A DNA stretch of 64,000 bases from a virus (Duplodnaviria > Caudoviricetes): positions 100 through 64,099 of IMG/VR virus record IMGVR_UViG_3300042940_000551; one strand, 5' to 3'. Under the pieces are notes generated by a model. That model had not been told where the DNA came from, did not search any database, and worked only from the letters and a program-made list of their open reading frames with translations. Shown piece by piece: positions 3,830-29,010 of this stretch. Numbering within the stretch: position 1 is the stretch's first letter; the number at the start of each line of letters is the position of its first letter. Position numbers and translations under genes: made by a program.

Positions 3830-4057
3830 ATGTTAAATTTAACAGAACTAGGTGTCGAAGTCTTTATAAAAAAGGCTAAAAATGTTAATTCGTTTTGGGA
3901 AAATTACGATCTAGTAATTTGGAAAAAAGACCCTAATGGATTTACTAATAAAAATGGCATGTTTGTGGCGGAAGCTTGGGGAACGGCTGAGAGAATAGTC
4001 GTTAACAATAAAGGGATATGGAAGTTGCCAAAAAAATATGTCAGATATTTTAAATAA
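3830..4057 (+). CDS. hypothetical protein
   Basis: 75 aa ORF with AGAGGA RBS downstream of the promoter. Confidence 0.75.
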   Translation: MLNLTELGVEVFIKKAKNVNSFWENYDLVIWKKDPNGFTNKNGMFVAEAWGTAERIVVNNKGIWKLPKKYVRYFK

Positions 4058-4349
4058 TCTGGGTATTGATCTAGAAGATCTAGACTGGTATCATTTAGGA
4101 TTATGTAGAGGAATGGATACAAATCTATTCTACGATAAATATGAAGCAGATTCAAATATAGCAAAAAATATAGACGAGGCTTGCCTTTCTTGCCCAGTTA
4201 TAAGTATGTGTTTTCAAGCAGGCGTTAACCAAAATGAATACGGAGTTTGGGGCGGAGTTTATTTAAGCTCTGGATCGATAGATAAATCAAAAAATATACA
4301 CAAGACCCCAGAAATATGGAAGAAATTGAAGGCAAAGAATGTATATTGA
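4038..4349 (+). CDS. whiB: WhiB-family Fe-S transcription factor
   Basis: LC..D..LFY, CxxC..C pattern (CLSCPVISMC) and GVWGG. Confidence 0.92.
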   Translation: MSDILNNLGIDLEDLDWYHLGLCRGMDTNLFYDKYEADSNIAKNIDEACLSCPVISMCFQAGVNQNEYGVWGGVYLSSGSIDKSKNIHKTPEIWKKLKAKNVY

Positions 4350-14937: not shown

Positions 14938-15219
14938 GAGGGATTTTGTCTATAGCCTCGTAAATAGCATATTCGGCCCATATTGTCAAGGCTTCAGGGG
15001 CATTTTATATGTCGTCGTAAACGACAAATTTTGCCCACAATTTTGACAGATTCTGATCCATATGTATCTCATTATCTGAGATTATATATACGTTTGATAA
15101 GATTGACATACGTTTATTAAATATTTTCAGGGATTTTTTATAGCTCGTCGTAAATGCGAAATATGGCCCATATGTTTATACACAAAAAATCCACAGGCTG
15201 TGGATAAACCTGTGGATAT
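14938..15219. repeat. three ~45-bp imperfect direct repeats followed by a DnaA-box cluster
   Basis: AGGG-N16-CGTAA-N~10-GCCCA at ~14939, ~14997, 15129; TTATACACA 15176, TGTGGATAA 15199, TGTGGATAT 15211. Confidence 0.75.
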
Positions 15220-15245
15220 CTTGGGCTATGGATATATTAGATTAG

Positions 15246-15512
15246 TTATACGTTACTATGTTTCCTATTGGTTACAAGGGATCTCTTCTTCTGCCGCTCC
15301 AGCCGATCATTTAATAAATGGGACATAGTAGGTTCGATCTTTGTTACCACCACCTCTGAACATAGGGAGTTGAATCGCTCCTGTTCAGCTAGCTTTTGAG
15401 CTTTCTCTGCCTTCTTAGCCTTCCTGAAGGTCCGTAGGGCATAGTTGATATCTCTACCATGGGAATCTGCCCACATCTTAGGCTTGCGCTGCTTATCCCC
15501 TATTGACTTCAT
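15246..15512 (-). CDS. basic hypothetical protein
   Basis: ORF track; last gene of the minus block. Confidence 0.6.
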   Translation of the reverse strand: MKSIGDKQRKPKMWADSHGRDINYALRTFRKAKKAEKAQKLAEQERFNSLCSEVVVTKIEPTMSHLLNDRLERQKKRSLVTNRKHSNV

Positions 15513-15796
15513 GGTAGTTTGATATTGTCGAAGTTGTTCTTTAGTTTAATCTTATCGATTACTTGGTCTAACTTATATGCTAGGGCAAGACCTTCTGATA
15601 CAGTTCCGCCATTGTGGTATTCCCGCTCATATCGTCTTGCTTGCTTCTCTACAACCCATGCCACAATTTCCATAATGCGGTCTAAGGTGTAGGTTGGCTG
15701 TTCTGCTAGGTATCTGCCTAAAGCGGCAGGATTGAAGAAATGGTCTTCTACTGAATTTGCTAGTAGTTCTCCTATTTTATGTTCTTTGCTTTGCAT
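15509..15796 (-). CDS. hypothetical protein
   Basis: AAAGGCGGAG RBS. Confidence 0.75.
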   Translation of the reverse strand: MQSKEHKIGELLANSVEDHFFNPAALGRYLAEQPTYTLDRIMEIVAWVVEKQARRYEREYHNGGTVSEGLALAYKLDQVIDKIKLKNNFDNIKLP

Positions 15797-15840
15797 ATCT
15801 CCGCCTTTGTTAGTAACCTTGAATTATATCAAAAAATGTT

Positions 15841-15872
15841 AGGGAGGTCAATACCCACATACTGACCTCCCC
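15841..15872 (-). terminator. hairpin terminator
   Basis: gggaggtca-atacccacatac-tgacctccc. Confidence 0.75.
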
Positions 15873-15877
15873 TAGCT

Positions 15878-16024
15878 TTACTTCTTTGCTTGCTTCTTCT
15901 CAGCTTCGAACTTGATCCCCTGAGCTTCCGCCTCAGAGATAGCTTTAACTGCAGCTGATGAAAAACGGCCACGGAGGCCGACGGTGATTCCTTGGGTCTT
16001 TAGATATTCTCTCTTTGTTGACAT
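15878..16024 (-). CDS. Lsr2-like DNA-binding-domain-only protein (48 aa, not in ORF track)
   Basis: MSTKREYLKTQGITVGLRGRFSSAAVKA resembles Lsr2 C-terminal REW...G..V..RGR; own promoter, RBS and terminator. Confidence 0.7.
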   Translation of the reverse strand: MSTKREYLKTQGITVGLRGRFSSAAVKAISEAEAQGIKFEAEKKQAKK

Positions 16025-16127
16025 GGTATTAGATCCTTTCGTGATCATATGTATTCTATCAGAAACCAGGGGTTTTGTAAATACCCCCGTAAGACCAGCT
16101 TTTGGCCCCTATATATTTAGTTGTAAT

Positions 16128-17898
16128 TTAGGATATAACTATTTTGTCAAACCCTGGGTGATGTTCCATATCTTCAGGCGTATCTTCAATTAAAGATTCG
16201 TCATCATATGTTATCGTTTGTTCATCTAAGAATACGTCAGTTGCTTCAATGACATCATCTGTTGTAACTTCAAACCACTCTGTACTTGGATAGGCATTTG
16301 CAGCCTCCGCTGCAGCATATTCATCCGCAGCAGAGACATGTGTATAATAGTTTTGATATTTGGTTCCGAATACTCTATATCTAGGCATTCATTAACTCCC
16401 GTTCCTCCCACTCAGCAAACGTTCGGACAATGAAATCCTTACCTAGATTATAACAAAATTGTACTGCTTCTGTCAAGGACTCTGTCTCAAATATTGGGAT
16501 CTGAACAGGCTCTATCTCAGATTTATCATACACCTCAAATGTATCCACACCTCCAGGGGAACAGGAGTAATTAACTTCCAGGATTTCTAAGCTTGGCTCG
16601 TATGACATGATTATTGCCCTTCTGTTTGTTCTACCCTATCTCTAATTAGTTTAGAGATGATGTTATGTGCTTCTATATTTTCAGTTTCGCTGCCACCCCA
16701 CAATAGTTCTTGGGCTCTGCTTAATTGATCATTGATATATGTATCACTCATCTTCATCTTCGTCCTCCTCTTCTTCTTCAAACATTGTGTCCACAATGTA
16801 GTCACGGCTTAACATCCAGTCAAGGACGTCATCGTTGTGCTGTTCCGCCCCGTACTCCAGAGAGAAGCCTTGGCCCGCCTCTACAGCCTCACAGAGGTGG
16901 TTCCACATCTCATCTATGGTGCAGTTCTGCTTGTAGGTCTCATCCTCAAAGATGTTGTTAATGGTAGACCAAGTCCATAGCCAAACTAAGGATAGGCCTA
17001 GGTCCGTTGTGTCTAGAATTTTTAAACATTCGTTTAGTTTATCTTTGTCTTCAGGCTTCATTCCGTGCTCCAATCGCAAATGATAGGTCGTATGTTAGTT
17101 TATACAGGGACACTAATGCGTCTAGATATCCTTCTGCATAGGTCCTCTCCATAGAATCCATTGCTTCACCTGACCGTTGTTCTTCTATCAGGGTCCGCTC
17201 TAATTCCTTTTCTCCAAGAAGCATGAGGTTCTTTAGTTCCCCATGCATGATGTCTAGGCCCGTTACCTCTGCGTCTACCATTCGTTGTAAATGGACGGGA
17301 AGTTCAGTATGTCTCATTCATATACCCTTTCGTTAGAAGCATTCATTATATCAGTAGCCACTGACAATAAATGTTCGGTTGCCATAATTTGTCCCTGGAT
17401 ATTAATTTTAGATTGAACATTGTAATCACCCTCTAAGTCCTGGTTAAGACTAATTAGATGTATCTTCATATACTCTATGAATCTAGATGACTTAGTCAAA
17501 GTAACCCTCCGCCCATAGGCCCTGTAGGAAATCATTTGCTTTTAACAAACCTTCAACTAAAGGGTCTTCGTCTACTTGCTCCACATCAGAATTTCTAATA
17601 TAGAAAAGCTTTGCGTCATGGACGGCATTACTCATTTGATCTAAATCTTCTTTGGTATAACCTAGCATTATGCTTCCTCATCCCATTCTATGTAGTATTG
17701 GTCCCCTGGTTTCAAATCATAAAACTGATTGAACCTACCTTTAAGATAATTGCTTTCTGCCATATCGGCAAAACAATAGTCTGCATATAGTTGACCTTCA
17801 TCTAAATTAGAATTAACCCAATCTTCTACCAGTTGTTCACCAATATAAGAATACTCTGCGTCAATCACCATTTGGTTTTCATTCTCTAAGAAACTCAT
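16128..17898 (-). other. early small-gene cassette: 16128-16388, 16381-16608, 16611-16751, 16744-17061, 17051-17317, 17314-17499, 17492-17668, 17668-17898
   Basis: Coupled acidic ORFs with GGAG/AAAGG RBS; no recognisable domains. Confidence 0.7.
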
Positions 17899-18668
17899 AC
17901 TTCCGCCTTTTCTGTAGTATCCAATAGTACCATGTGGGTCTGACATTCTTTCATAGCCTCTTCATCCTGCCAAGAACCATAATTACATTCTGAGCAGAAT
18001 TCACCGCAGTCATTCTCACAATACTCAACACAATCAAAAGACTGGCAAGCATAGCAACGATTTTCCCATTCTGCCAATTCTTTTACTTCGCCACGAACAA
18101 TCTCATATTCCCCACCCCAACCTGTCTCTTCCTCAAACTCTAATGTGAGAAGGGAATTAGGAACAAGATTACTTAGTTTAGTTAAGATAGTTACAGCAGG
18201 TGACCAAGCAGTCTCATATTTATATACAACCCAGTTGTCATCACCTTCTGATTTTTCTTCAAGCAATTCTGTATTAGGATATTTGTCATCATCTGATACA
18301 GCAACATCCCATTTGGTTCCCCAATTAGAATTATTCCATGAATACCAATCCTTCTGAGTTTTAGCAAACTCAACAGATTTGCGGAACCAATCAGGGTCAT
18401 TCATATCTAAACCTGAACGGTCAGGCTGGCAGGCATACTCTTCATCAGTAATACCTTCATCCTTATATGAGTGGATATTAAAGAAAGCAAAAACAGGATT
18501 ACTATAAGTAACCTCTTTAATTTTGGTGGGGAACCCATGGGCATTAATATCACCCATACCATATGTCTCTTGTGCTAATGTAAATGGCTTATTAAGTCTA
18601 TCCTTAATCATATCAACTTCATCCTTTGGACCTTGTATGGTCAAAGTGTTATATACCCAATTTGGCAT
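17895..18668 (-). CDS. DUF1281/YubB ferredoxin-like domain protein
   Basis: MPNW..N.L.I.G, W...NWGTKW, ETAWSP; Cys-rich C-terminus. Confidence 0.75.
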   Translation of the reverse strand: MPNWVYNTLTIQGPKDEVDMIKDRLNKPFTLAQETYGMGDINAHGFPTKIKEVTYSNPVFAFFNIHSYKDEGITDEEYACQPDRSGLDMNDPDWFRKSVEFAKTQKDWYSWNNSNWGTKWDVAVSDDDKYPNTELLEEKSEGDDNWVVYKYETAWSPAVTILTKLSNLVPNSLLTLEFEEETGWGGEYEIVRGEVKELAEWENRCYACQSFDCVEYCENDCGEFCSECNYGSWQDEEAMKECQTHMVLLDTTEKAEV

Positions 18669-18847
18669 TATATTCCTTTCGATAGGTCCTAATTATATAA
18701 CACGCCACTGACATATGTCTATCATATTTGGTGTGTCTTACACCACATTTGATCGTTTGATAAGATAAAGATATGCTAAAATATCCAGGAATTTATTGAT
18801 CTCTCCGTAAGAGAGAATTTATACCCTCAGCTGTTGCGGGCAAAGAA

Positions 18848-18879
18848 AAATCCCCCAAGACCCGAAACCTGGGGGATTT
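18848..18879 (-). terminator. intrinsic terminator
   Basis: aaatccccca...tgggggattt with U-tract on the minus strand. Confidence 0.85.
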
Positions 18880-18883
18880 AAGA

Positions 18884-18996
18884 ATAAAGGCTGCTAGCAG
18901 AAACGAAAGGAATTTAGTAAACGCTGCTTTACTTAGCGACTAGGGGAGTCCCTGGTAGCCGCACCTTTATTATATAAAGAGGCCCACTAGGACCTA
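18884..18996. ncRNA. candidate structured small RNA
   Basis: ORF-free; closing stem 18884-97/18952-70, two inner hairpins; flanked by a -10 (19002-07) and a terminator. Confidence 0.4.
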
Positions 18997-19022
18997 TTCA
19001 TATTATATCATAAACTAGTTAA

Positions 19023-19427
19023 CTAAACTGAGATGACAACATCGGCATACTTCTCAACAAAGTTGCTGAGGTCCATGGTAAAGATGGCGTCATTGCTCAT
19101 CCCATTTACCTTGTTATCCAAGTCATTGCGTGGAGCCTCTTCATGAAGACTAAATGTCTGTTGCTCAAAGTCGATAATGGCAACCTTGTGCTCATTGTCG
19201 CCAATCTCATTAACGTATAGACCCCAGCCTGTTTCCATATTCCACTGGTCCGCAACCATTTGACTGATTGTGATACGTGTAGCATATGAAGGGTCATTCC
19301 AACGTGGACGTGCTTTAAACACTGCCTCTGCTAGGTTTGCTAGCATGTTATGTCCAGCCCAGTGTCCGTATAGCACAATTGTGTTACCGTTAGGTTGGAC
19401 GAATCCAAAGTTTGCTCTATCTCCCAT
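19023..19427 (-). CDS. phage hypothetical protein
   Basis: MGDRAN...LYGHWAG; follows internal TTGACA-N18-TAGAAT promoter. Confidence 0.8.
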   Translation of the reverse strand: MGDRANFGFVQPNGNTIVLYGHWAGHNMLANLAEAVFKARPRWNDPSYATRITISQMVADQWNMETGWGLYVNEIGDNEHKVAIIDFEQQTFSLHEEAPRNDLDNKVNGMSNDAIFTMDLSNFVEKYADVVISV

Positions 19428-20615
19428 TATATTTCCGCCTTTTCTAGTTGAGGTACTTCTTCGGTTTTATTCAATTCTATCATTTCAAAGGAGACCTTGT
19501 CAAGGGCCTCTTTGTTTTTATTGTAGTGGTGGCCACAGAAATATAGCTCACCGTCTACTAGTTTAATTAGATACATAGCTTGAGCTGTACCACATTGATC
19601 ACAGCCGATCCATCTAGTTAGATCCTCAGATGTCATAGTCAACGGTTCCAAATTCAATGCGGTCAGCAATCTCATCATAAACTTGACCATCATCTGAAGT
19701 CTCAGCCCAAACACGAATGTTTGCAACAATTACTTCACGAGTAAATTTTACTCCGTCCTCAAAACCATCTTGGTAATCCATTTTATCTCCCTGTGTATCC
19801 TGTTGGCTCGTATTCCGAAACATAAGATTCGATAAGATTGTGTTTGTCACGAATCTTACTTACTTTCTCAATACTACCAGTTCCAATGTTGAATGTCAAT
19901 GCTGAAATTGCCTGCGGGTCAAGACCCATTACTTGAGCATCCCAATAGGCCCTCTCCATGGAGAGCCTATCAGGAGCAGTCAACTCAAAATACATTAGGC
20001 TTCCCTAACGTTGCATACTTCTTGGTCGACAACTTCGATGTTGCCGTTGTTTGAATCAGCAAAGAGCGCATCTGTAACTTCATCCTCGATATCATAATCA
20101 TATGGGTCGAGTAAGTTAACTTCAATAGTTCCAGTTACTTCAACAGATGCAGTAAACTGAACAGTCTTAGTCAACTCAATATCAAGAGCCTCGGCGATTG
20201 CACGTAAAGTATCTTGGTCTTGTGAGTCAGCATATGCCTCAAGAATGATATCTTTAACTGAATCAATCTTAGAGTTAAGTAAACCGTTTTGCTTTTGACG
20301 TTCACGTCCATTGTGTAGTTCCCATTCAAGGTTAACTACTTTATCTGTTGCATATTCTGCATCAGAGTATCCACGGATAACTTTATAGGTTACCAATAGA
20401 TTTGGGTTATATGTATCGGGCACCGTTACTGTGCTTGTCTCTTCCATTTTATTTCCTTCCGTTTCTGTAGGGTCTGATTCTACCACATTGGTCTGACACC
20501 ACACAACACTTGGGTCACTACAATTACAGGACGGGTCCCGAAAATGTATTCCCTTAGATACAATCTCAATAGATGCATCGCATGAGTGACATACATACCA
20601 ATATGATTTGAACAT
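19427..20615 (-). other. ORFs 19427-19642 (CxxC..CxxH Zn finger), 19626-19781, 19783-19995, 19995-20615
   Basis: ORF track with refined starts; coupled. Confidence 0.7.
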
Positions 20616-20718
20616 GACGCTATTGTACAGGACCCCACTGACATTTACAAGGATTTCCAGGGATTTTTTTTACGTGTCGTAACACAAAAAATCCCCCCTT
20701 AGCTCTGCGGGCCCTTTG

Positions 20719-20792
20719 CGATCCATAACGGACTTGAACCGTCGACCTCTACCGTGACAGGGTAGCGCTCTAACCAACTGAGCTAATGGACC
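20719..20792 (-). tRNA. tRNA-Asp(GTC)
   Basis: GGTCCAT/ATGGATC acceptor, CTACC-CTGTCAC-GGTAG anticodon arm, GGTTCAAGTCC T-loop; no encoded CCA. Confidence 0.93.
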
Positions 20793-20832
20793 AAATGGTG
20801 AGCAGTTTTAAATCTTGCTCAGGATTTTTTCT

Positions 20833-21837
20833 TTAGAAGGATTTAACCATCTTAAGAATTTTATTTTTTTCTGCGGTTAAGATTGGGTCAAAACCACTTG
20901 CACCCGCCATTAGGGTTTCGGAATTACCACGACCAGAACGGAAATAGTCAAGGCGTTCGGTAAGCGCATTAAACGCACCCCACTTTGTGCCTTTAATATT
21001 AGCGTTAGTTGGTGAGTTATGATAAAGGTCATCGATTAGAACAACCTTATTTTCCCAACGCTTAATTGTTGATTTGTTATCAACATCAGGCTTAGGATAA
21101 ATTGAGCGAATCAACTTTGAGAATTCAACATCGGTAATCTCTTGGTTAAAGAGTTCCTGCGCTTCCTTCTCAAACTCATCGAAATACCCAAGAGCAAGCC
21201 CAAGAGTTTCACGAGCAACTTGAATTCGTCCTTCAACAGATTGTGTGTGACGAATCTTGAATGATTGCTTTGCATTACGCATTGCAAGATTAAGAGTGTT
21301 TTGGCAAACTACACGAACAGGTGTAATCGCTGCCTGAACAGCAACTGAGCCATCGTGTGATGTCCAAACAATTAAATATAACTTTGTTTGGTCATTGGCA
21401 CCTTGTGGGTCAAGCACCATTGTGCGAGGAATATCAACAGTTCCAAACACAACTTTGCCCTTCTTAAGAGAGCCAGCAGATTCCCAACGGCAATTAGGGT
21501 CTGCGTCATGAATATTATCTGCAAACGCAAACAATTCTTCATTCTGCACAACTTTGTAACGCTTACCAACAGTAGCGAGAACATCGGTTTCGCCGTTGAA
21601 TGGATTGTCACGCAATACAAGGTGGGATTCTGATACGTCATTCCACTCTGATGAGATATAATCGGTAATTGGAGAGAGACGAACATTCCAATTAGATAAC
21701 TTTGCTTCTTCAAGCATTGTTTGTGTAGTCACATCTTCATCTTGATTGAAGATACGATTGGCAAGATTATGCCATGCGGGTGCACCACGAAGAGCAAATG
21801 CAACTTCGCTACCATTGGTTTCTAGATTATGAGCCAT
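20833..21837 (-). CDS. DUF932 family protein (phage/plasmid TIGR03299-like)
   Basis: MAHNLE, APAWH.L, LG.VG.RY.VVQNEE.F, SHDGS, TPVRVVCQNTL. Confidence 0.88.
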   Translation of the reverse strand: MAHNLETNGSEVAFALRGAPAWHNLANRIFNQDEDVTTQTMLEEAKLSNWNVRLSPITDYISSEWNDVSESHLVLRDNPFNGETDVLATVGKRYKVVQNEELFAFADNIHDADPNCRWESAGSLKKGKVVFGTVDIPRTMVLDPQGANDQTKLYLIVWTSHDGSVAVQAAITPVRVVCQNTLNLAMRNAKQSFKIRHTQSVEGRIQVARETLGLALGYFDEFEKEAQELFNQEITDVEFSKLIRSIYPKPDVDNKSTIKRWENKVVLIDDLYHNSPTNANIKGTKWGAFNALTERLDYFRSGRGNSETLMAGASGFDPILTAEKNKILKMVKSF

Positions 21838-22114
21838 GGATTTTTTCCTTTCGATTGGTTAGTTTGGCAATTATAGCAGACGGGACTGACAAGCACAAGA
21901 TAAACTTGGCATATGTCCTAATTGTCTAGTGTGATCAATCTCATATTTTTGGGGGATTGTGGATAACTGTCGTAAGGCTGTGGATAACCCCGCACATCTG
22001 CGGGCTGTGAGCTGCAGCAGATATGCCTACTCCGAAAAGATAGTCGGAGATCGTGAGCATTCTTTGGCGTAGGGAAAAACAAGAAAACTACGCTTTGACT
22101 GCAGCCCAACAATT

Positions 22115-22354
22115 TTAGATTAGTTTAGTTATTTCAGTCCGCTTTGGAATTACGTCCATTGGTATCATTAACGCTGTAGTCTTTTTCTTTTTAAGACTAT
22201 CATATACAAACGCCTTGATGTTTCCATTAAATCGGCGCATGTTAGAGAAGACTAGTTCAGTTAGATATTGCTTATCAACGCCTTGTTCTGAGTAAAGAGT
22301 TAAATCATTAGCCTTTACTTCATCATAGATTTCTATTCTATAACGATTTTTCAT
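22115..22354 (-). CDS. hypothetical protein
   Basis: AAAGGA RBS. Confidence 0.75.
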   Translation of the reverse strand: MKNRYRIEIYDEVKANDLTLYSEQGVDKQYLTELVFSNMRRFNGNIKAFVYDSLKKKKTTALMIPMDVIPKRTEITKLI

Positions 22355-22392
22355 TTTATTCCTTTGTTAGTAGGGAGTTAAATTATAGCATT

Positions 22393-22417
22393 GGGGGCTA
22401 GAGTTTGTCTAGCCCCC
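22393..22417 (-). terminator. hairpin terminator
   Basis: gggggctaga-gtttg-tctagccccc. Confidence 0.8.
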
Positions 22418-22426
22418 TGCCATTAG

Positions 22427-22843
22427 TTAGAGATACTTGGCAATCTGCTTCATTGTAGAAGCATTTACTGTTTCCTCATCTGTCATTTTGAGAATTGTTA
22501 GGGCATTGGTGATGTCCTCTTTCATCTCACGATAAGTGTGCTGATGGATTTGCTCGTAGTCCTTTTCAGGCTCTTTAGGAAACGCTGTATCTTTTGTGAT
22601 GATGTCAAAATCAACATTAAGAGTGTTGTTCCATTGACGATAGTTTGTTCTGATGTTTTCTGCCTTAGAGAAATTGTCAATCGCCCACTTGCCGATTTCC
22701 TTATGCCACTTCTCACGGGCTTTCTGATACTTTGTTTCGTTTGCTTCTTGTGAAGCATAGTCTTTCTCTAGTGTTGATAGCCGAGCCTCTAGTGCTTTAA
22801 TTACTTTAGCAGTTGCTACCTTTACTGTGATTTGTCTTGACAT
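22427..22843 (-). CDS. hypothetical coiled-coil protein
   Basis: AACGAAAGGAA RBS and own promoter. Confidence 0.8.
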   Translation of the reverse strand: MSRQITVKVATAKVIKALEARLSTLEKDYASQEANETKYQKAREKWHKEIGKWAIDNFSKAENIRTNYRQWNNTLNVDFDIITKDTAFPKEPEKDYEQIHQHTYREMKEDITNALTILKMTDEETVNASTMKQIAKYL

Positions 22844-22971
22844 TATTTTCCTTTCGTTTCGGTTGGTTGATTAGTATAACATAGGGGTCTGACATTTACC
22901 CCTAAAGGTGAGAGTTCTTACTTACGACATTGGGCGAGAACACTCTCTAAACTGCCCCTGTTTCGTTCTAT

Positions 22972-24280
22972 TTAGTTGTTAGGTGCGCTAGTCCAGCGTT
23001 CCTTACCATTTACATCAAGCAGGATACGATTTGTTCCGCTAGGGTGGTTATCAACCGCCTTGATAACTCCTGTGATACCGCTTGTTGTTGTTGTGTAGGT
23101 TTGACCTACTTCTAGTGTTGTGTTCATTTATTTCCTTTCGTTAGGTGGATTATTATACCAAAGGGGTCTGACATTTATCTACCCCAATCTTATTATTTGA
23201 GATTCCAGGGGTGTGAGTTGCCTCACACTCCTGGTTTTGATCCCGTTAGTAAGCTTCGGGAAGCCAAGCGTGTAGGTGGTGTCCATCTACGATAGCAGAG
23301 GCGGGGCAAGAATCTTGACCTCTCCAAAATACGCCTTCGGGCAGTTTAATTAATCTTTGATAGTCCTCATCATAGTATGCGTCAATAGCATCTATACAAG
23401 GTTCGACCATAGATACTGGAACGGGTGGATAGTGATTACTAGTCAAGTGGATTTGAATTTGTGTTTCCAAGTCCAAGTCTAGTAGGTCATTACTAGCCAA
23501 GTCATATGCCATATTGCTTCCCATTATTCGTTCTCCTCTAGGATAGTTTCGGATAGGTTTTCCATTTCGTCTATTGTAGCGCATAGGTCTGACATTTCTT
23601 TTTCGGTTAGCAATACCTTAGTTATGCTATCGGCTACTTTTGCAGATAGGGCAGAGGAATACATATATAGATACTTAGCAAAGATTTCATCGCTAAGTTC
23701 ATTTCTGCGGGTATGCAGTTCTCCCGCAAGCCCCATTATATCCTCATCAAAGATAGAGTTTTTGGTTGCGTCTAATAAATCTATTGCAGTTGATAGCATT
23801 ATTCTGCCACCTTTAGAATAGCCCAAGAGCCACCCGCATTTACTTCGTCAATAACTGGAGTAATCTTAGGAAGTAAAATAGACTTTAGCATTCCTTCTAG
23901 CATAAAGATTTGTTCTTTTTCAGGTAACGCAAGTAAGCGTTGTGCGGTTGGATTTGTTTCGTCAAGTTCGGTGACGAAGTTTAGAGAGTGGCTGATGATT
24001 TTCATTTGTTGCCTTTCGTTGGTTGAATAATGGTATTTTACACTATGGCACCGACATTTGCTAATCCATCCTCGGCGTGTCGCAGTTTTTGTGAAGTTTC
24101 TCACATTTCAGGGTTATCCACAATTAACCCGTAAGCCTGTGGATAACCCCGCAGTATTGCGGGCCCTTTATCGCTCCTGGTCCCAAACTTCAGGATCCAC
24201 TTCTTTTAAATATTTTATTGCATCTGAACGTTCATCTTCCGTGCCGAGGACCGTCGCCATTAATGCGCTAAAGTATTTCA
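22972..24280 (-). other. ORFs 22972-23127, 23246-23524, 23524-23799, 23799-24005 and a short ORF starting at 24280
   Basis: Each cassette has a CGAAAGG-type RBS and a motif promoter. Confidence 0.7.
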
Positions 24281-24293
24281 TTTTTATTTCTCC

Positions 24294-25013
24294 TTATTTT
24301 TTAGTTGCGCTAAATCTAATATCTGCTTTACCATAAACACATAAGCCGCATGACACACATGCAGAACCATTGCTAGAAATAAGCGGAATGCTTTTATTAT
24401 TTTCAGGACATTTAGCGCCAGGCTTGCCCGTTAATTCTTTCATGGTGCTTTCGGTGACGGCGAATGTCTTTCCTAGATAAGCAAGGCGGATACCTTGATT
24501 AAGTTTTAAGTCATGAGCAATATCTTTATTCTCATCGTCGGTAGAATAGTAAAGTGATAAGTTAGAAATATCCTTAAGGATTAAGGCTGCAGACTTAACT
24601 CGTGTATATACCCAGAATTGAACATCGGGATGATTAGAGATAACAGTCTTCCACGCATATGCGTAGGTATCGTTAAAGAAATCCCCGTCCCAGTGGATAC
24701 GGAATAACTTAGGAGCACTCTTCTTATCGCAATCATTGACGAAGTCAACAATCATTTCGTCTAGCAATAAGCACATTGTATCCATATCTGCATTGCGTAG
24801 TAGTTCCCAGTTATGAAGAAGATTAGCCTTTACGGCTTTATAGAGTTTTTCCAATTTGCCTGCATAGCAAACACTCTCGCAGATAGACGTAGCGCCAGGA
24901 CATGAATAAGCCTTTCCTGCGGGTAATCCAAACGTGTTAGCAATTGCTGCCTGCTTTCCATTTTTTGTGACAAGGTTAGCCACCTTTCTATCATTAGAAC
25001 GTTTAAGCTTCAT
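24294..25013 (-). CDS. Gp88-like Fe-S/radical-SAM-related protein
   Basis: FGLPAG..SCPGATSICESVCYA, FRIHWDGDF, FWVYTR, C-terminal CxxC; ATG 7 nt after TATAAT. Confidence 0.75.
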   Translation of the reverse strand: MKLKRSNDRKVANLVTKNGKQAAIANTFGLPAGKAYSCPGATSICESVCYAGKLEKLYKAVKANLLHNWELLRNADMDTMCLLLDEMIVDFVNDCDKKSAPKLFRIHWDGDFFNDTYAYAWKTVISNHPDVQFWVYTRVKSAALILKDISNLSLYYSTDDENKDIAHDLKLNQGIRLAYLGKTFAVTESTMKELTGKPGAKCPENNKSIPLISSNGSACVSCGLCVYGKADIRFSATKK

Positions 25014-25042
25014 GGGGGTAATTATAGAGGTTAGGTCTGACA

Positions 25043-25267
25043 TTATAAGTCACCCATTTCTGCATCGGCCATACGGGACTGCATACGAAATTCATCTCTT
25101 TCAAATAAATCAAAGAATTTCATTTCGGAGCGCTCTAAGTCGCAAGTCCAGCAAATTATGCCGTCTAGTAATTCAGTTTCATCTCGGCAATCCGCACAAT
25201 TAGCAATAATTACGGGCTCGGTTGTAGCATAGAATTCGTCATAGAATTCATCATTTTCATAGTTCAT
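25043..25267 (-). CDS. small acidic Zn-binding protein
   Basis: CADC...CWTC. Confidence 0.65.
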   Translation of the reverse strand: MNYENDEFYDEFYATTEPVIIANCADCRDETELLDGIICWTCDLERSEMKFFDLFERDEFRMQSRMADAEMGDL

Positions 25268-25402
25268 GAGTTGACCTTTCGTTCGATTTAAGAGAATAAT
25301 ACCATGACGCACTGACATTTTCTGCAACCCGCCTCAGAATCCAGGGTGATTTTAATCACACCCGTAACGACACGCCCGACTCCGCAGCTCTGTGGGCGGG
25401 CC

Positions 25403-25418
25403 TCGAACATATGTTCTA
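25403..25418. promoter_or_regulatory. LexA (SOS) box-like site
   Basis: TCGAAC-ATAT-GTTCTA versus actinobacterial TCGAAC-N4-GTTCGA. Confidence 0.55.
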
Positions 25419-25438
25419 AATTATAAATTAGATCGTAA

Positions 25439-25573
25439 TTAATTTTCTAATTTATTTTTATGTTTTATTTTGCGTGTGTATTTTTTTTTATTGCGAACAG
25501 GTTGCGCCGCATTACTGCGACGCAATTCCTGAATTCGTTTTACTTTATCTCGTAGTGAGTTTTGGAATAACAT
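25439..25573 (-). CDS. basic 44-aa peptide with ArfA-like C-terminal motif (not in ORF track)
   Basis: MLFQNSLRDKVKRIQELRRSNAAQPVRNKKKYTRKIKHKNKLEN. Confidence 0.55.
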   Translation of the reverse strand: MLFQNSLRDKVKRIQELRRSNAAQPVRNKKKYTRKIKHKNKLEN

Positions 25574-26263
25574 AACCACTCGCCTCGTGAAATCTTTTTA
25601 CATCAAATCGCTCATTATCTTTCGCAAACATTTCAGCGAAATCATTTACGACTTTAGAAAAAACAGCGGGGTGAATTTTATTACTCGCATACTTTAGAAT
25701 TTCTGCGGTTGCGACATAATCTTTTCGTGTCATCATTTTACTACGACCCTTCTACCTTCACGATAAAATAATTTCGTGTAGCATTTTCCGCTAGGTGTGT
25801 AAAGATTTACAGTTGAGTATTCATCAGCAAATCCCCAATCCACATACTTAGCGAATTCGGTGTGAGCCTCTAATTCATCTGAGTATTCTCTTACAAAGTG
25901 GATAGGCTCGCTATCATTAGCAACAGTTATTTTATACATTAGATACCCCACTTTTCTAGAGCGCAATCGCAACTCTCTACATCATAATTGTTTTCATCGC
26001 CCCAAAATAAGAAGCCAGCACCGCCACACTCATCACAAGATACAGCGATTATTTCTGAGATATTTCCCATTAGTTTTCCTTTCGTTTTGTTGTAATAAAA
26101 TTATACCAGCACCCACCGACATTTATTCGGCTTCGGGTGTAGTAAAAATCCCCTCATTTAGTAAGCCCACCTCAAGGGCAAATAACTCATCGGGGGTTGC
26201 TTCGGATAAATCTACCCAGCCAGCACCCTCGTTGTCCATACGAAAAATTTCTATGTATCCCAT
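25545..26263 (-). other. small ORFs 25545-25736, 25733-25939, 25939-26070, 26123-26263
   Basis: Coupled ORFs, manually translated. Confidence 0.65.
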
Positions 26264-26265
26264 TA

Positions 26266-26472
26266 TTATTCACCTACCTTTACTGCGACTGTTGCGAATT
26301 TATTTCGCAAGCCACCCGCATTTATTTCGATTAGGTAGGCTTCAGTATTTTCGCCATACCAAATTTCTGGGCGGTGTTCAGCAGAAATAATCTCACCTGA
26401 AAAGTGGCGAGTATTTGAGCGATAGGTTTTTCCTACAAGTAGGCTTTCGATTGTGTATAGTTTGGTAGCCAT
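26266..26472 (-). CDS. hypothetical protein, paralog A
   Basis: YTIESLLVG.TY.S..R.F.G.IISAE.R...ATVAVK. Confidence 0.75.
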   Translation of the reverse strand: MATKLYTIESLLVGKTYRSNTRHFSGEIISAEHRPEIWYGENTEAYLIEINAGGLRNKFATVAVKVGE

Positions 26473-26740
26473 TGGCAGACCTTCTTTCGTTTGTTGTTAT
26501 AGCACCATTATAGCCGATAGCACCGACATTTTTCTACTTACTAGCCAGTAATTCCAAATAATGAGACGCTCAAGCCGTGTGTTCTTCATCACATAAAAAT
26601 GTCCGATTTGTCTGTCAAATCGACACGCCGTAGAATTCAGGGTTTTTTATAACAATGTCGTAACGACACGCCCGACGCCGCAGCTCTGCGGGCTTGTCAA
26701 GCCGACACGCCGTTGTGTCGGTGTGAATTACCTCACAATT

Positions 26741-26956
26741 TCAGTAATCTGAAATTCTGACCGCAACTGTTGCCCATTCATCAGTGAATGAACCTGTTGG
26801 GCGATAGCGAATTGAAAACGCTTCATAACCTTCAGGCGGATAAACATTTTCACGCTTTTCCGCAAAGTTAATTATTCCGCCATTAAATCGGCGACGCATT
26901 GACGTTGGTGAATAGTATTGATCCACCAACAAATCTACAATAGAATAACCTCTCAT
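26741..26956 (-). CDS. hypothetical protein, paralog B
   Basis: YSIVDLLVD.YY.P..R.F.G.IINFAE.R...ATVAVR. Confidence 0.75.
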   Translation of the reverse strand: MRGYSIVDLLVDQYYSPTSMRRRFNGGIINFAEKRENVYPPEGYEAFSIRYRPTGSFTDEWATVAVRISDY

Positions 26957-27210
26957 TGGTTTTCCCCTTTCTTTTCAGTAATTTTAGCAGATAGCACTGA
27001 CAAAGCTTGAGCCTTGCTTGCTTCACGTTGCGCTAAAACGTGTTTTTTAAATTCATCTAAATTCATTTTAGTTTTTCTCCTTAGTAGGTAGAGCGAATAA
27101 ATATTTTAGCAGAGCCTTGCGCTCATAAGTAGTTAATTCTGGGTGATTAGAAACCACTCCACCATTTTGGTATTCCCAAACAATTTTATTAAAAGTTTTT
27201 TCGGATAACA

Positions 27211-28649
27211 TTACATCACCCAACTTTCTTGAGTGTATGCTAACCACTCACCAAGGGTCATTAAACCCTTGTATTCATTACATTTACCGCAAAACATTTC
27301 GTTTGCGTAGTCTGAGCAAAAACCGCAGACAATTAAATTAGCCTCATCGGCTTGGACATTAGAGAGAGTAATCTCTCGGATTAGTGTAGTCATTTAAGAC
27401 CACCTTTCTTTTAACGATTAAAACCTTATTTAATCTTGATACTAGTATCCTACCATAGACCACTGACATTTTGACCCGTTTTTCGGGCGTGTCGGAAAAC
27501 TATTTTTGTGATTTACATCATGTGGATAACTTACGCTCAATTTTCAGGGGTTTTCCACACCTGTGTATAAAGCTGTGGATAACGCCCCCAAGTACTTGCG
27601 GGCCGATCTGACTTTGTCAAATCGACACGCCGATAATTAGCGCAAATCTTTTGTGAGTTCCCTCACATCTTCTTTTAACATTGGCCACGCCATACGCCAC
27701 AAGGATACGACGGAAACTAGTAGGGCTAATTGGACTAGTGTAGTTAGTAATCTATTCATTACTTATTCTTCTTTCTCTTATAAATCTTATAAGCAATTAG
27801 TAGGGCGGTAGTAATAGCGATAGTGTGCCAAGGTAAGTAGATAGCCCCAAAGAAACTATCAAACTCTAATCCGTATTCATTAGATACGATTAACTCAAAT
27901 CCGCTAGGTATCATTGTATTAGTCCTCCCAATCTAGTGCTAGTTCTTCTTCATCTAGCATATCGCTATCTGCTAAGTTTTCGTAGTAGGCTTTTTCCCAC
28001 TCTAAGTTTTCTTCTATTCCAATATAGGCATCTGCTACATCTGCTTGGATAGTATCCCATTTAGACATCATTAGTTTTGTTCTACCTTTCGCATATGTGC
28101 TACAACATTTTTAGAAATCTTTTGTAGTTCTGTTAGTGTCTTATTCATTTCATCTGCGCTAGTAGCGGTGAAGAAACCGAGGAATTGTGCCCCGTCCCAT
28201 AGTGAGTATGTTATTGTCATTTTATTTTCTATCCTTTTCGTTAGTTGTTATAGTTGATATTGTAGCCTATATGGCTGACATTACCTAGCATAGGGCTAGG
28301 TGTGTCGGTGTGAGTTATCTCACACCTAAGAGCCATTGGCTCTCATTAGGGCTTAGGTATTTATGAGATACGCAACCCTCTTTAGAGGCTAGTAACTCTA
28401 GGTAAGCCTTACGGCTCATATAGTTACCTACGCTATTACGAAACACAAGCGGATCACCTGTGTTACTACTAGCCATAGGGTGGCTAGCGTCTACAATAAT
28501 GTTATTCATTACTTAACTCCTTTCTTAGAGCAATTCTCCATGTGAACGAAGCAAGCGTATCCACACTCATCACAGATACTATCTGCTAGACGGGCACGGA
28601 TTTGTTCATAACTCTCAAGAGAGTTTCTATTTTCATATAGTGAGTTCAT
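27211..28649 (-). other. very small ORFs including 27211-27393, 28315-28509, 28509-28649
   Basis: GAAAGG RBS and motif promoters. Confidence 0.6.
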
Positions 28650-29010
28650 TTGGAACTCCTTTCTTTTTAGATAAACTTAGGTAATTTATTTGCTAGGCTC
28701 ACCTTTCGGATTATTTGCTAGGCTCATTTACCTTTATTTAATTTTCTTTATACTATAATCCTAGCAGGGGGGACTGACAAATATCAAGTCGCAAATCGGA
28801 CATGTCGGACAATTTGAAAAAAAAGTGTGTGAGTTAAGCCACATTTAGCCTATCTATGGGCGCACTATATAGACAAAACGGACATTTTTAAAGTGTGTAT
28901 CATACAAATTAAAATCCTATTAACATTTTGGTATATCTAAAATAGTAGTCGACTAAAAATATTTGATCATATCTATTGACCCAACAAAATCTGCTATGTT
29001 ATACTTAAGA

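Follow-up and report, generated by a model that had tools for sequence, protein, structure and literature searches.

Helically phased CRP/GlxR-type boxes upstream of PafBC-type promoters in a lineage of freshwater actinophages

Results

We analyzed a 64,000-nt stretch of DNA from an uncultured lake-water phage (hereafter, the window) and found that TGTGA-N6-TCACA boxes of the CRP/GlxR type are phased to the promoters of a block of small genes. This observation is real. About half of the promoters of the small-gene block have such a box, set back from the promoter by an integral number of helical turns, and a global regulator of the host therefore probably helps to control the start of infection. 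Our preferred reading of these sequences, held with a probability of roughly 0.55, is that the boxes are predicted sites for a dimeric Crp/GlxR regulator, most probably host Crp, which would act as a phased upstream co-activator or modulator.

Boxes cluster in a block of small genes

The window contains five perfect boxes, against 0.10 expected, and none of 100 shuffles reached five. All of them lie within 23.2–28.3 kb, and their starts agree exactly with those of the original prediction. Sites with at most one mismatch numbered 10, against 2.2 expected. Six further boxes had been called near-perfect; four of these carry a single mismatch, whereas the term is generous for the boxes at 18732 and 27507, since each has two. 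The distances previously given for nine promoter-proximal boxes, from the box centre to the first base of the -10, were all reproduced exactly (42.5, 51.5, 52.5, 57.5, 62.5 in three cases, 72.5 and 73.5 bp). Genes and promoters at 14.5–28.8 kb are on the minus strand. The features are listed below, with distances measured as above.

17345–28779, minus strand: promoter block, 17 copies of TGTC(A/G)G-N10-TAnnnT, nine with a box
18732–18747: two-mismatch box (TGTGTCTTACACCACA; TGTGGTGTAAGACACA on the minus strand), distance to promoter 18713–18692 42.5 bp
21930–21945: one-mismatch box, distance to promoter 21891–21870 62.5 bp
23212–23227: perfect box (TGTGAGTTGCCTCACA), distance to minus-strand promoter 23173–23152 62.5 bp
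24090–24105: perfect box of the half-turn-off class, distance to promoter 24056–24035 57.5 bp
25345–25360: one-mismatch box (TGTGATTAAAATCACC on the minus strand), distance to promoter 25317–25296 51.5 bp
26578–26593: one-mismatch box, distance to promoter 26528–26507 73.5 bp
26722–26737: perfect distal box, 4 nt past an ORF end, next -10 at 217.5 bp
27507–27522: two-mismatch box (TGTGATTTACATCATG; CATGATGTAAATCACA on the minus strand), distance to promoter 27468–27447 62.5 bp
27652–27667: perfect distal box, next -10 at 207.5 bp
28309–28324: perfect box, distance to promoter 28280–28259 52.5 bp
28828–28843: one-mismatch box, distance to promoter 28779–28758 72.5 bp

The boxes at 26722 and 27652 are not promoter-proximal, as the next -10 lies 217.5 and 207.5 bp away, respectively. 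The former is followed by a CCGACAC/GTGTCGG dyad, a TTGACA and a CCCGCA hairpin. TTGACA follows both distal boxes, and its reading as part of a hidden promoter was ruled out, as no -10 lies at 16–18 nt. The box at 24090 has inverted DnaA-type boxes and CCCTGAAA upstream and CGACACGCC downstream. Scanning the window for background frequency returned a single extra site with at most one mismatch, at 30134; it lies beyond the region and is probably a chance match.

The core promoters are of the PafBC type

In the block promoters, a conserved TGTC(A/G)G stands 10 nt before the -10, and no conserved -35 element was found among the 17 copies; the canonical sigma-70 -35/-10 core of class I CRP promoters is therefore absent. 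The PafBC consensus reads tGTCgg(N10)tA(N3)T, with a -26 element at -23 to -28 (PMC8635444), and all 17 minus-strand copies have this bipartite motif of RecA-NDp promoters, which lacks a -35. This match to the PafBC -26/-10 type sets the promoters apart from canonical class I promoters. Most are followed by a ACGAAAGGA ribosome-binding site and then small ORFs.

The phage promoters thus carry the same motif as the PafBC-dependent mycobacterial promoters, although the known examples serve host DNA-damage genes, whereas here 17 copies are found in a phage. In the accessible text on the RecA-NDp class, an upstream Crp site is not described as part of it. A second likeness is to the T4 middle promoters (MotA/AsiA), also a phage class in which another factor's box replaces the -35 contact; PMC8635444 itself likens PafBC promoters to T4 sigma appropriation. 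T4, however, brings its own factors, whereas this phage appears to lean on those of the host and has a CRP-type site upstream in addition. Parts of the block were matched at 88–99% likeness by freshwater metatranscriptome contigs, which give neither starts nor strand and may reflect DNA carry-over; they are not counted here as a sign of expression.

Box sequence and helical ladder are kept across related phages

The phage group comprises about 500 IMG/VR contigs, and our comparison set consisted of 80 related IMG/VR loci (861 kb) with 416 perfect boxes. The four complete relatives (112–116 kb) have 4–11 boxes each, all within one block of ~6–11 kb. In a base-frequency table of 222 unique sites, the half-sites were invariant, the N6 centre was free and A/T-rich, and positions 6 and 11 were symmetric (G/T and A/C). 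At the level of sequence, this combination is typical of a site for a dimeric protein. Two sequence hallmarks of a CRP/GlxR site, a 16-bp palindrome and a variable centre of fixed length, are present, and the assignment of the motif to the CRP/GlxR consensus is upheld.

Across the 80 loci, the distances to the -10 fell into classes at 41.5–43.5, 51.5–53.5, 56.5–58.5, 61.5–64.5, 71.5–73.5 and 94.5 bp, the last being a tandem arrangement, and single boxes lay outside these classes at 67.5, 110.5 and 139.5. Boxes with one or two mismatches mostly shared the rungs of the perfect ones, apart from a minor one-mismatch set at 65.5–70.5. A Rayleigh test with a period of 10 bp on 24 distinct spacer types gave R = 0.56 (p = 3 × 10⁻⁴), and a simulation in which the best period was left free between 9.5 and 11 gave p = 0.002. 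These results indicate that the ~10-bp ladder of promoter-proximal boxes noted in the original prediction is more than chance. Three spacer types at 57.5 and one at 67.5 fall on the opposite helix face. Because the distances step by one helical turn, a bound dimer would always face one side of the transcription complex.

Promoter modules are shuffled among the relatives, and the box before the same downstream gene occupies different rungs in different phages. Before the gene downstream of the 23212 box, the relatives' box is at 42.5, 51.5–52.5 or 61.5–62.5. At the position of the 21930 box, 60 of the 63 relatives have a perfect box; likewise, the box corresponding to 26578 is perfect in relatives with its spacer type. 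The imperfection of the 25345 box is the same one in the relatives, and the counterparts of 18732 and 27507 are conserved imperfect boxes on unchanged rungs, those of 18732 reading TGTGG...(T/A)CACA. The distal box at 27652 is also kept in relatives, at a variable distance.

The arrangement matches class I CRP promoters in part

Class I CRP sites in E. coli are centred at about -61.5, -71.5, -82.5 and -92.5, and activation proceeds through contact of Crp AR1 with the C-terminal domain of the RNA polymerase alpha subunit. As in the E. coli class I promoters of the lac P1 type (for a description, see PMC10187061), the phage has a 16-bp TGTGA-N6-TCACA upstream of the core, in steps of about a helical turn and on one face. 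Boxes at 42.5, 52.5, 62.5 and 72.5 have the class I spacing of 10–11 bp between positions, with exceptions at 57.5 and 67.5. The absolute positions differ, however: with the -10 set at -12 to -7 by PafBC numbering (PMC8635444) rather than from mapped start sites, the centres fall at about -54.5, -64.5, -74.5 and -84.5. This places them ~3 bp off the class I register, and in one widely used module the box is exactly half a turn off the ladder. The phage promoters are also unlike the E. coli ones in having a PafBC-type -26 element in place of a -35, and unlike a single chromosomal operon, the phage has a small-gene block with up to 11 perfect sites.

A same-face class I arrangement, as proposed previously, is borne out by the upstream placement and the steps of about one turn; the core promoter, the register, the 57.5 class and the two distal boxes depart from it. 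Taken as a whole, the earlier interpretation is partly supported.

Crp and PafBC are predicted in host-like actinobacteria

The host type was approached through the following gene, an actinophage marker.

4038–4349, plus strand: WhiB-like gene

Since it encodes WhiB, which was present in five of five phage genomes, the phage is an actinophage. Cellular matches to the phage WhiB, followed up to trace the host, were mostly phage-like contigs binned in unrelated metagenome-assembled genomes. The portal is 59% identical to the portals of Streptomyces BE-cluster phages. No box was found in Streptomyces phage Karimac, of the closest cultured group by portal, so the feature was not inherited from BE-cluster phages. 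Megablast of the 22–29 kb segment against GenBank phages gave no match, and literature searches for phage CRP-site arrays or promoter motifs of this phage family yielded nothing relevant.

Searches of five phage genomes found no Crp-family domain (PF13545, PF00027), sigma domain (PF04542) or Cro/C1-type HTH (PF01381). Because no Crp-family gene was found in them, the host's own Crp is the most probable binder. A Pfam scan of 20 small block ORFs returned no domain and nothing usable. Outside the block, a ~160-aa ORF of the four complete relatives gave an HTH_17-like match of 22 bits, below the cut-off.

Among 201 Actinomycetia genomes, the perfect box had ~532 matches, compared with ~44 for a reversed control. 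All five of the small, low-GC Actinomycetia genomes considered as candidate host-like (1.3–1.4 Mb) have a Crp orthologue, for which we used the recognition helix pattern RETV(G/N)(R/K), and adjacent WYL-domain ORF pairs resembling pafBC. The orthologue in one of them (L102:1051–1731) matched M. tuberculosis CRP with E = 7 × 10⁻⁷⁷ and an identical recognition helix. Small acI-like genomes hold 0–1 perfect boxes each, so their Crp regulons, if any, would use weaker sites.

ChIP-seq in M. tuberculosis has shown that CRP occupancy rises as mismatches to the consensus fall, with perfect sites bound strongest (PMC4117774). The consensus is shared with the regulons of M. tuberculosis Rv3676 and C. 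glutamicum GlxR, and the recognition helix of the host-like orthologue with Rv3676. Sites in cellular Crp/GlxR regulons, however, are mostly imperfect and scattered and serve both activation and repression, whereas those of the phage are consensus-grade, clustered and phased; we came across no description of cellular Crp/GlxR sites in a helical ladder.

Discussion

In the mechanism that we favor, a Crp/GlxR dimer would dock at the palindrome upstream of the small-gene promoters and, sitting on a constant helix face, would co-activate or modulate transcription much as CRP does at class I promoters. PafBC would recognise the -26/-10 core and Crp would add a second input; since the core promoters match the PafBC type, the genes would integrate inputs from both of these host factors. 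We infer that Crp would bind and activate, that cAMP or carbon status would play a role, and that the block would be expressed early; the small-genome actinobacteria surveyed here are candidates for the host type. A more specific proposal is a two-input gate built from host factors only, in which PafBC-type promoters would report ssDNA or DNA damage, and consensus Crp sites one to four helical turns upstream, in phase, would report cAMP or metabolic state. We regard this gate as tentative and somewhat doubtful.

Among the alternatives, the best surviving, although an unlikely one, is a phage-encoded or virion-delivered dimeric DNA-binder of unrecognised fold whose likeness to CRP would be convergent, and which might, for example, switch off the small-gene block or keep it under autoregulation. 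Most block ORFs have no recognisable domain, and a novel regulator could hide there; the weak HTH_17-like match (22 bits) outside the block is another candidate, and the box-free Karimac genome points to a lineage-specific system. Yet the boxes agree with the CRP/GlxR consensus at every one of the 10 specified bases, and no Crp-family, Cro/C1-type or sigma gene was found in the five phage genomes. Moreover, sites that lie 54–85 bp before the start and are helically phased look like those of an activator, not like a promoter-overlapping operator.

Less likely still, host Crp may bind the boxes as a conditional brake, as a roadblock where operons end, or as a sponge, titrating Crp away from the host regulon during phage replication. 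Against a brake, repressors usually bind over the core promoter itself, and for a pure sponge both phasing and promoter proximity would be superfluous, yet phasing is strongly kept across modules and phages. On the other hand, two perfect boxes each lie at the 3′ end of an upstream operon and show no phasing to any promoter, the 57.5 class is on the opposite helix face, and the phage has five perfect sites in 5 kb against 0–1 per host-like genome of 1.4 Mb. GlxR and M. tuberculosis CRP are, in addition, repressors as well as activators (PMC10187061).

That the palindromes are instead nucleic-acid hairpins (terminators or RNA-processing sites) or cassette boundaries in recombination is very improbable: TGTGAG/CTCACA can pair as a 5–6 bp stem, a consensus scan called two boxes terminator-like on the plus strand, and promoter modules are clearly shuffled among relatives, but the stem is just 5 bp with a sixth pair that is often G/A, it never varies and so shows no compensatory change, the loop is free in sequence but fixed at 6 nt, and the boxes lie upstream of promoters at quantised distances from the -10, which is a feature of double-stranded DNA. 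The RNA-hairpin reading was rejected on the short stem, the fixed loop and the quantised spacing.

If, as in our preferred reading, host Crp is the binder and drives the first phage genes jointly with PafBC, the outcome of infection would hinge on the metabolic and DNA-damage state of the host. Such control would bear on phage–host dynamics in lakes, where freshwater actinobacteria rank with the most abundant bacteria; the phage lineage with the boxed small-gene block is itself an abundant freshwater one. It would also provide a natural promoter set that pairs a CRP-type activator with a sigma-adaptation factor. Should the two-input gate hold, CRP-type upstream activation would be seen for the first time on sigma-adaptation promoters, and this phage would be the first whose infection start is tuned by host Crp. 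The promoters also amount to a natural spacing experiment, in which 42.5, 52.5, 62.5 and 72.5 are allowed and intermediates are almost never used.

CRP-type boxes are concentrated in a block of small genes

A pattern search of the window for TGTGA-N6-TCACA recovered all five perfect boxes of the original prediction, compared with 0.10 expected, and none of 100 shuffles reached five. Allowing at most one mismatch yielded 10 sites (2.2 expected). The boxes at 21930, 25345, 26578 and 28828, which had been called near-perfect, each carry one mismatch, whereas those at 18732 and 27507, placed in the same set, carry two each.

Boxes in the window (start or span)
23212-23227: perfect, upstream of the minus-strand promoter at 23173 (pattern match)
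24090: perfect, in an off-phase module (57.5 bp)
28309: perfect (pattern match)
26722-26737: perfect, 217.5 bp upstream of the next -10, not promoter-proximal
27652-27667: perfect, 207.5 bp upstream of the next -10, not promoter-proximal
21930, 25345, 26578, 28828: one mismatch, inside the region
30134: one mismatch, outside the region
18732, 27507: two mismatches

Between ~14.5 and 28.8 kb, the window (40% G+C) carries small ORFs on the minus strand, and we refer to this region and its counterparts in relatives as the block. In 80 related IMG/VR loci (861 kb of homologous block), we found 416 perfect boxes, or 0.48 per kb. Four complete relatives contained 4, 7, 8 and 11 perfect boxes, all within one ~6-11 kb block per genome; the other ≥100 kb of these genomes contained no perfect box, the reversed control pattern had no match, and the 132 kb of Streptomyces phage Karimac contained no perfect box.

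We then tabulated base frequencies over 222 unique sites, whose half-sites are invariant because the search pattern sets them. The sites show a symmetric preference at positions 6 (G/T) and 11 (A/C), and the four central bases are A/T-rich and otherwise free. One set of corresponding promoter regions, comprising 42 unique sequences, keeps TGTGA and TCACA at ≥95% conservation around a varying centre. Conserved half-sites, a variable centre and symmetry at positions 6 and 11 together read as the signature of a site for a dimeric protein rather than of a hairpin. The boxes at 18732-18747 (TGTGG...) and 25345-25360 (...TCACC) show the identical imperfection in all relatives, which suggests that site strength is tuned, with selection for weaker sites at particular promoters.

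The window also has nine perfect DnaA-type boxes (TTATCCACA; 0.96 expected), spanning 15199-27582. The block's intergenic modules contain seven of them, and some are arranged as inverted pairs adjoining a CRP-type box. A tRNA-Asp gene lies within the block (20718-20792, minus strand), and a four-tRNA cluster (Asn, Gly, Gln, Arg) lies just past it (30916-31218, plus strand).

The boxes are helically phased to PafBC-type promoters

Seventeen promoter-like units of the form TGTC(A/G)G-N10-TAnnnT lie on the minus strand at 17345-28779, many with TG(G) immediately 5′ of the -10 and most with the ribosome-binding site ACGAAAGGA and then an ATG downstream. Related loci carry 6-17 such motifs each on this strand and almost none on the other. 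The in vivo motif of PafBC is tGTCgg(N10)tA(N3)T; PafB contacts a "-26 element" at -23 to -28, such promoters lack a -35 element and have the canonical SigA -10 (PMC8635444). All 17 window promoters match this PafBC (RecA-NDp) consensus exactly, with a -26 element and without a -35. Adjacent WYL-domain ORF pairs, as expected of pafB and pafC, were present in five of five small actinobacterial genomes. Judged by its motif, a host DNA-damage promoter class appears to have been adopted by the phage for the small-gene block. This match set the numbering, with TGTCAG at -28 to -23 and the -10 at -12 to -7, so that box centres on the main ladder fall at about -54.5, -64.5, -74.5 and -84.5, the off-phase centre at -69.5 and the outermost at -106.5.

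The nine distances from box centre to the first base of the -10 that underlay the prediction of phasing were reproduced exactly (42.5, 51.5, 52.5, 57.5, 62.5 three times, 72.5 and 73.5 bp). Perfect boxes in the relatives fall into a small number of narrow classes.

Distance from box centre to the first base of the -10 in relatives (perfect boxes)
41.5-43.5 bp: 12 sites
51.5-53.5 bp: 76 sites
56.5-58.5 bp: 68 sites
61.5-64.5 bp: 151 sites
71.5-73.5 bp: 75 sites
94.5 bp: 11 sites, outer box of a tandem pair

Below 140 bp, perfect boxes outside these classes occurred only as singles (67.5, 110.5 and 139.5 bp). Boxes with one or two mismatches mostly occupy the same rungs, apart from a minor one-mismatch set at 65.5-70.5 bp, and are otherwise almost absent across 32-118 bp. 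Since related sequences are not independent, the 206 unique spacers were grouped by sequence, which gave 24 types, each represented by its modal distance. Over these types, the Rayleigh statistic was highest for a 10-bp period (R = 0.56, p = 3 × 10⁻⁴); when uniformly distributed distances were simulated and the best-fitting period could be anything from 9.5 to 11, p was 0.002.

Comparing, across phages, promoters that serve the same gene gave the most telling result. Upstream of the gene served by promoter 23173, the box lies at 42.5, 51.5-52.5 or 61.5-62.5 bp, depending on the phage; a second gene has its upstream box at 52.5-53.5 or 62.5 bp, and a third at 63.5 or 71.5-73.5 bp. Whether rungs change through indels or through swapping of promoter modules, whole-turn spacings alone survive. 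The predicted phasing holds as a ~10-bp ladder across the spacer types, but not for every box: three types at 57.5 bp and one at 67.5 bp lie exactly half a turn off, among them a module in wide use that carries DnaA-type boxes and CGACACGCC (24090 in the window), and the two distal perfect boxes stand apart.

These distal boxes directly follow the upstream ORF, at the 3′ ends of upstream operons, and each is followed by a GGCGTGTCG-N2-TTGACA element and then a CCCGCA-N4-TGCGGG hairpin; they are kept in relatives at unphased distances. Between boxes and promoters (24074-28808), we also observed a repeat, TGTCAA-N2-CGACACGCCG, and CCGACAC/GTGTCGG dyads (for example, 26613-26630, 26695-26712 and 27615-27632), which a second regulator may recognise.

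Class I activation had been proposed for these boxes. Their periodicity is indeed like that of E. coli class I CRP promoters, but the register differs by ~3 bp from that in E. coli, and the core promoter belongs to another class. By analogy, the arrangement would resemble class I in its working but is a non-member.

Host Crp is the favoured candidate regulator

We consider it very probable (about 0.9) that the box is the site of a dimeric regulator phased to the promoters, and we lean, from sequence comparisons, towards host Crp as that regulator. Across 201 Actinomycetia genomes (including the unpublished G012, G027, G032 and G035, none of which carries a claim by itself), the perfect box had ~532 matches compared with ~44 for the reversed control, as fits a motif that Crp/GlxR is known to use in this class. 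Of the genomes, eleven with sizes of 1.3-1.5 Mb (G015, G037, G065, G080, G090, G112, G132, G152, G170, G188 and G203) held one perfect box in total (0-1 each), and consensus sites are far denser in the phage block; all five tested among them encode a single Crp orthologue. One of these five, L102 (47% G+C), has a Crp whose match to M. tuberculosis CRP is full-length (E = 7 × 10⁻⁷⁷) and whose recognition helix is identical. In CAP, R and E of RETVGR read the G:C pairs of TGTGA (PMC10187061), and in M. tuberculosis, ChIP-seq yielded a CRP consensus resembling that of E. coli, sites with more mismatches being less occupied (PMC4117774). Crp of any actinobacterium would thus be expected to bind a consensus-grade phage box strongly.

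We propose that PafBC-adapted host RNA polymerase-SigA would recognise the -26/-10 promoters and that the resulting complex would be stabilised, or modulated, by a Crp dimer sitting on a constant helix face between one and four turns upstream of them. Class I activation proceeds from upstream sites via the alpha C-terminal domain (PMC10187061). For the putative regulator here, the odds of net activation are about even.

One rival to host Crp is a phage regulator of an unrecognised kind. Domain searches of five phage genomes (the window's phage and the four complete relatives) found no PF13545 (Crp HTH), PF00027 (cNMP-binding), PF04542 (sigma-70 region 2) or PF01381 (Cro/C1-type HTH); an HTH_17-like match scored 22 bits, below the cut-off, and lies far from the block, and no Pfam domain was found in 20 small ORFs of the block. 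Alternatively, Crp bound at the boxes might be a brake, a roadblock or a sponge. Some boxes may differ in their job from others, to judge by the distal pair and the opposite-face class. That the boxes are hairpins or cassette boundaries is unlikely.

Returning to Crp as regulator, the suggested gating of early genes by cAMP or carbon status fared less well. cAMP reportedly alters GlxR DNA binding roughly 100-fold (PMC10187061). In a cAMP-deficient strain, GlxR keeps binding to its in vivo sites at a reduced level, so carbon-status gating of the block is speculative; we infer early expression solely from the block's gene content and architecture. We found no description in the literature of CRP-site arrays in phage or of promoter motifs for this phage family.

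The phage belongs to an abundant freshwater group

The window covers nearly all of a 64,099-bp IMG/VR contig, estimated at 56% of the genome, and encodes a portal, head protease, tail fibres and ribonucleotide reductase. The portal is 59% identical to those of ~130-kb Streptomyces BE-cluster phages. Two further genes place the phage:

4038-4349, plus strand: WhiB-family gene
24294-25043, inside the block: GP88-family protein

WhiB, which is taken as an actinophage marker (PMC10202952, PMC6802176) and is also present in all four complete relatives (112-116 kb), marks the phage as an actinophage. The GP88-family protein has 497 IMG/VR relatives, and parts of the window recur in RNA-library runs, most of them metatranscriptomes from fresh water or lakes and a few of them from wastewater. 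On these grounds, the phage is an uncultured actinophage that is abundant in fresh water. Its WhiB has its nearest "cellular" relatives on contigs L091-L097, which were assigned to metagenome-assembled genomes of Bacteroidia, Arenimonas and Chitinophagaceae; they are probably phage contigs that ended up in the wrong bins.
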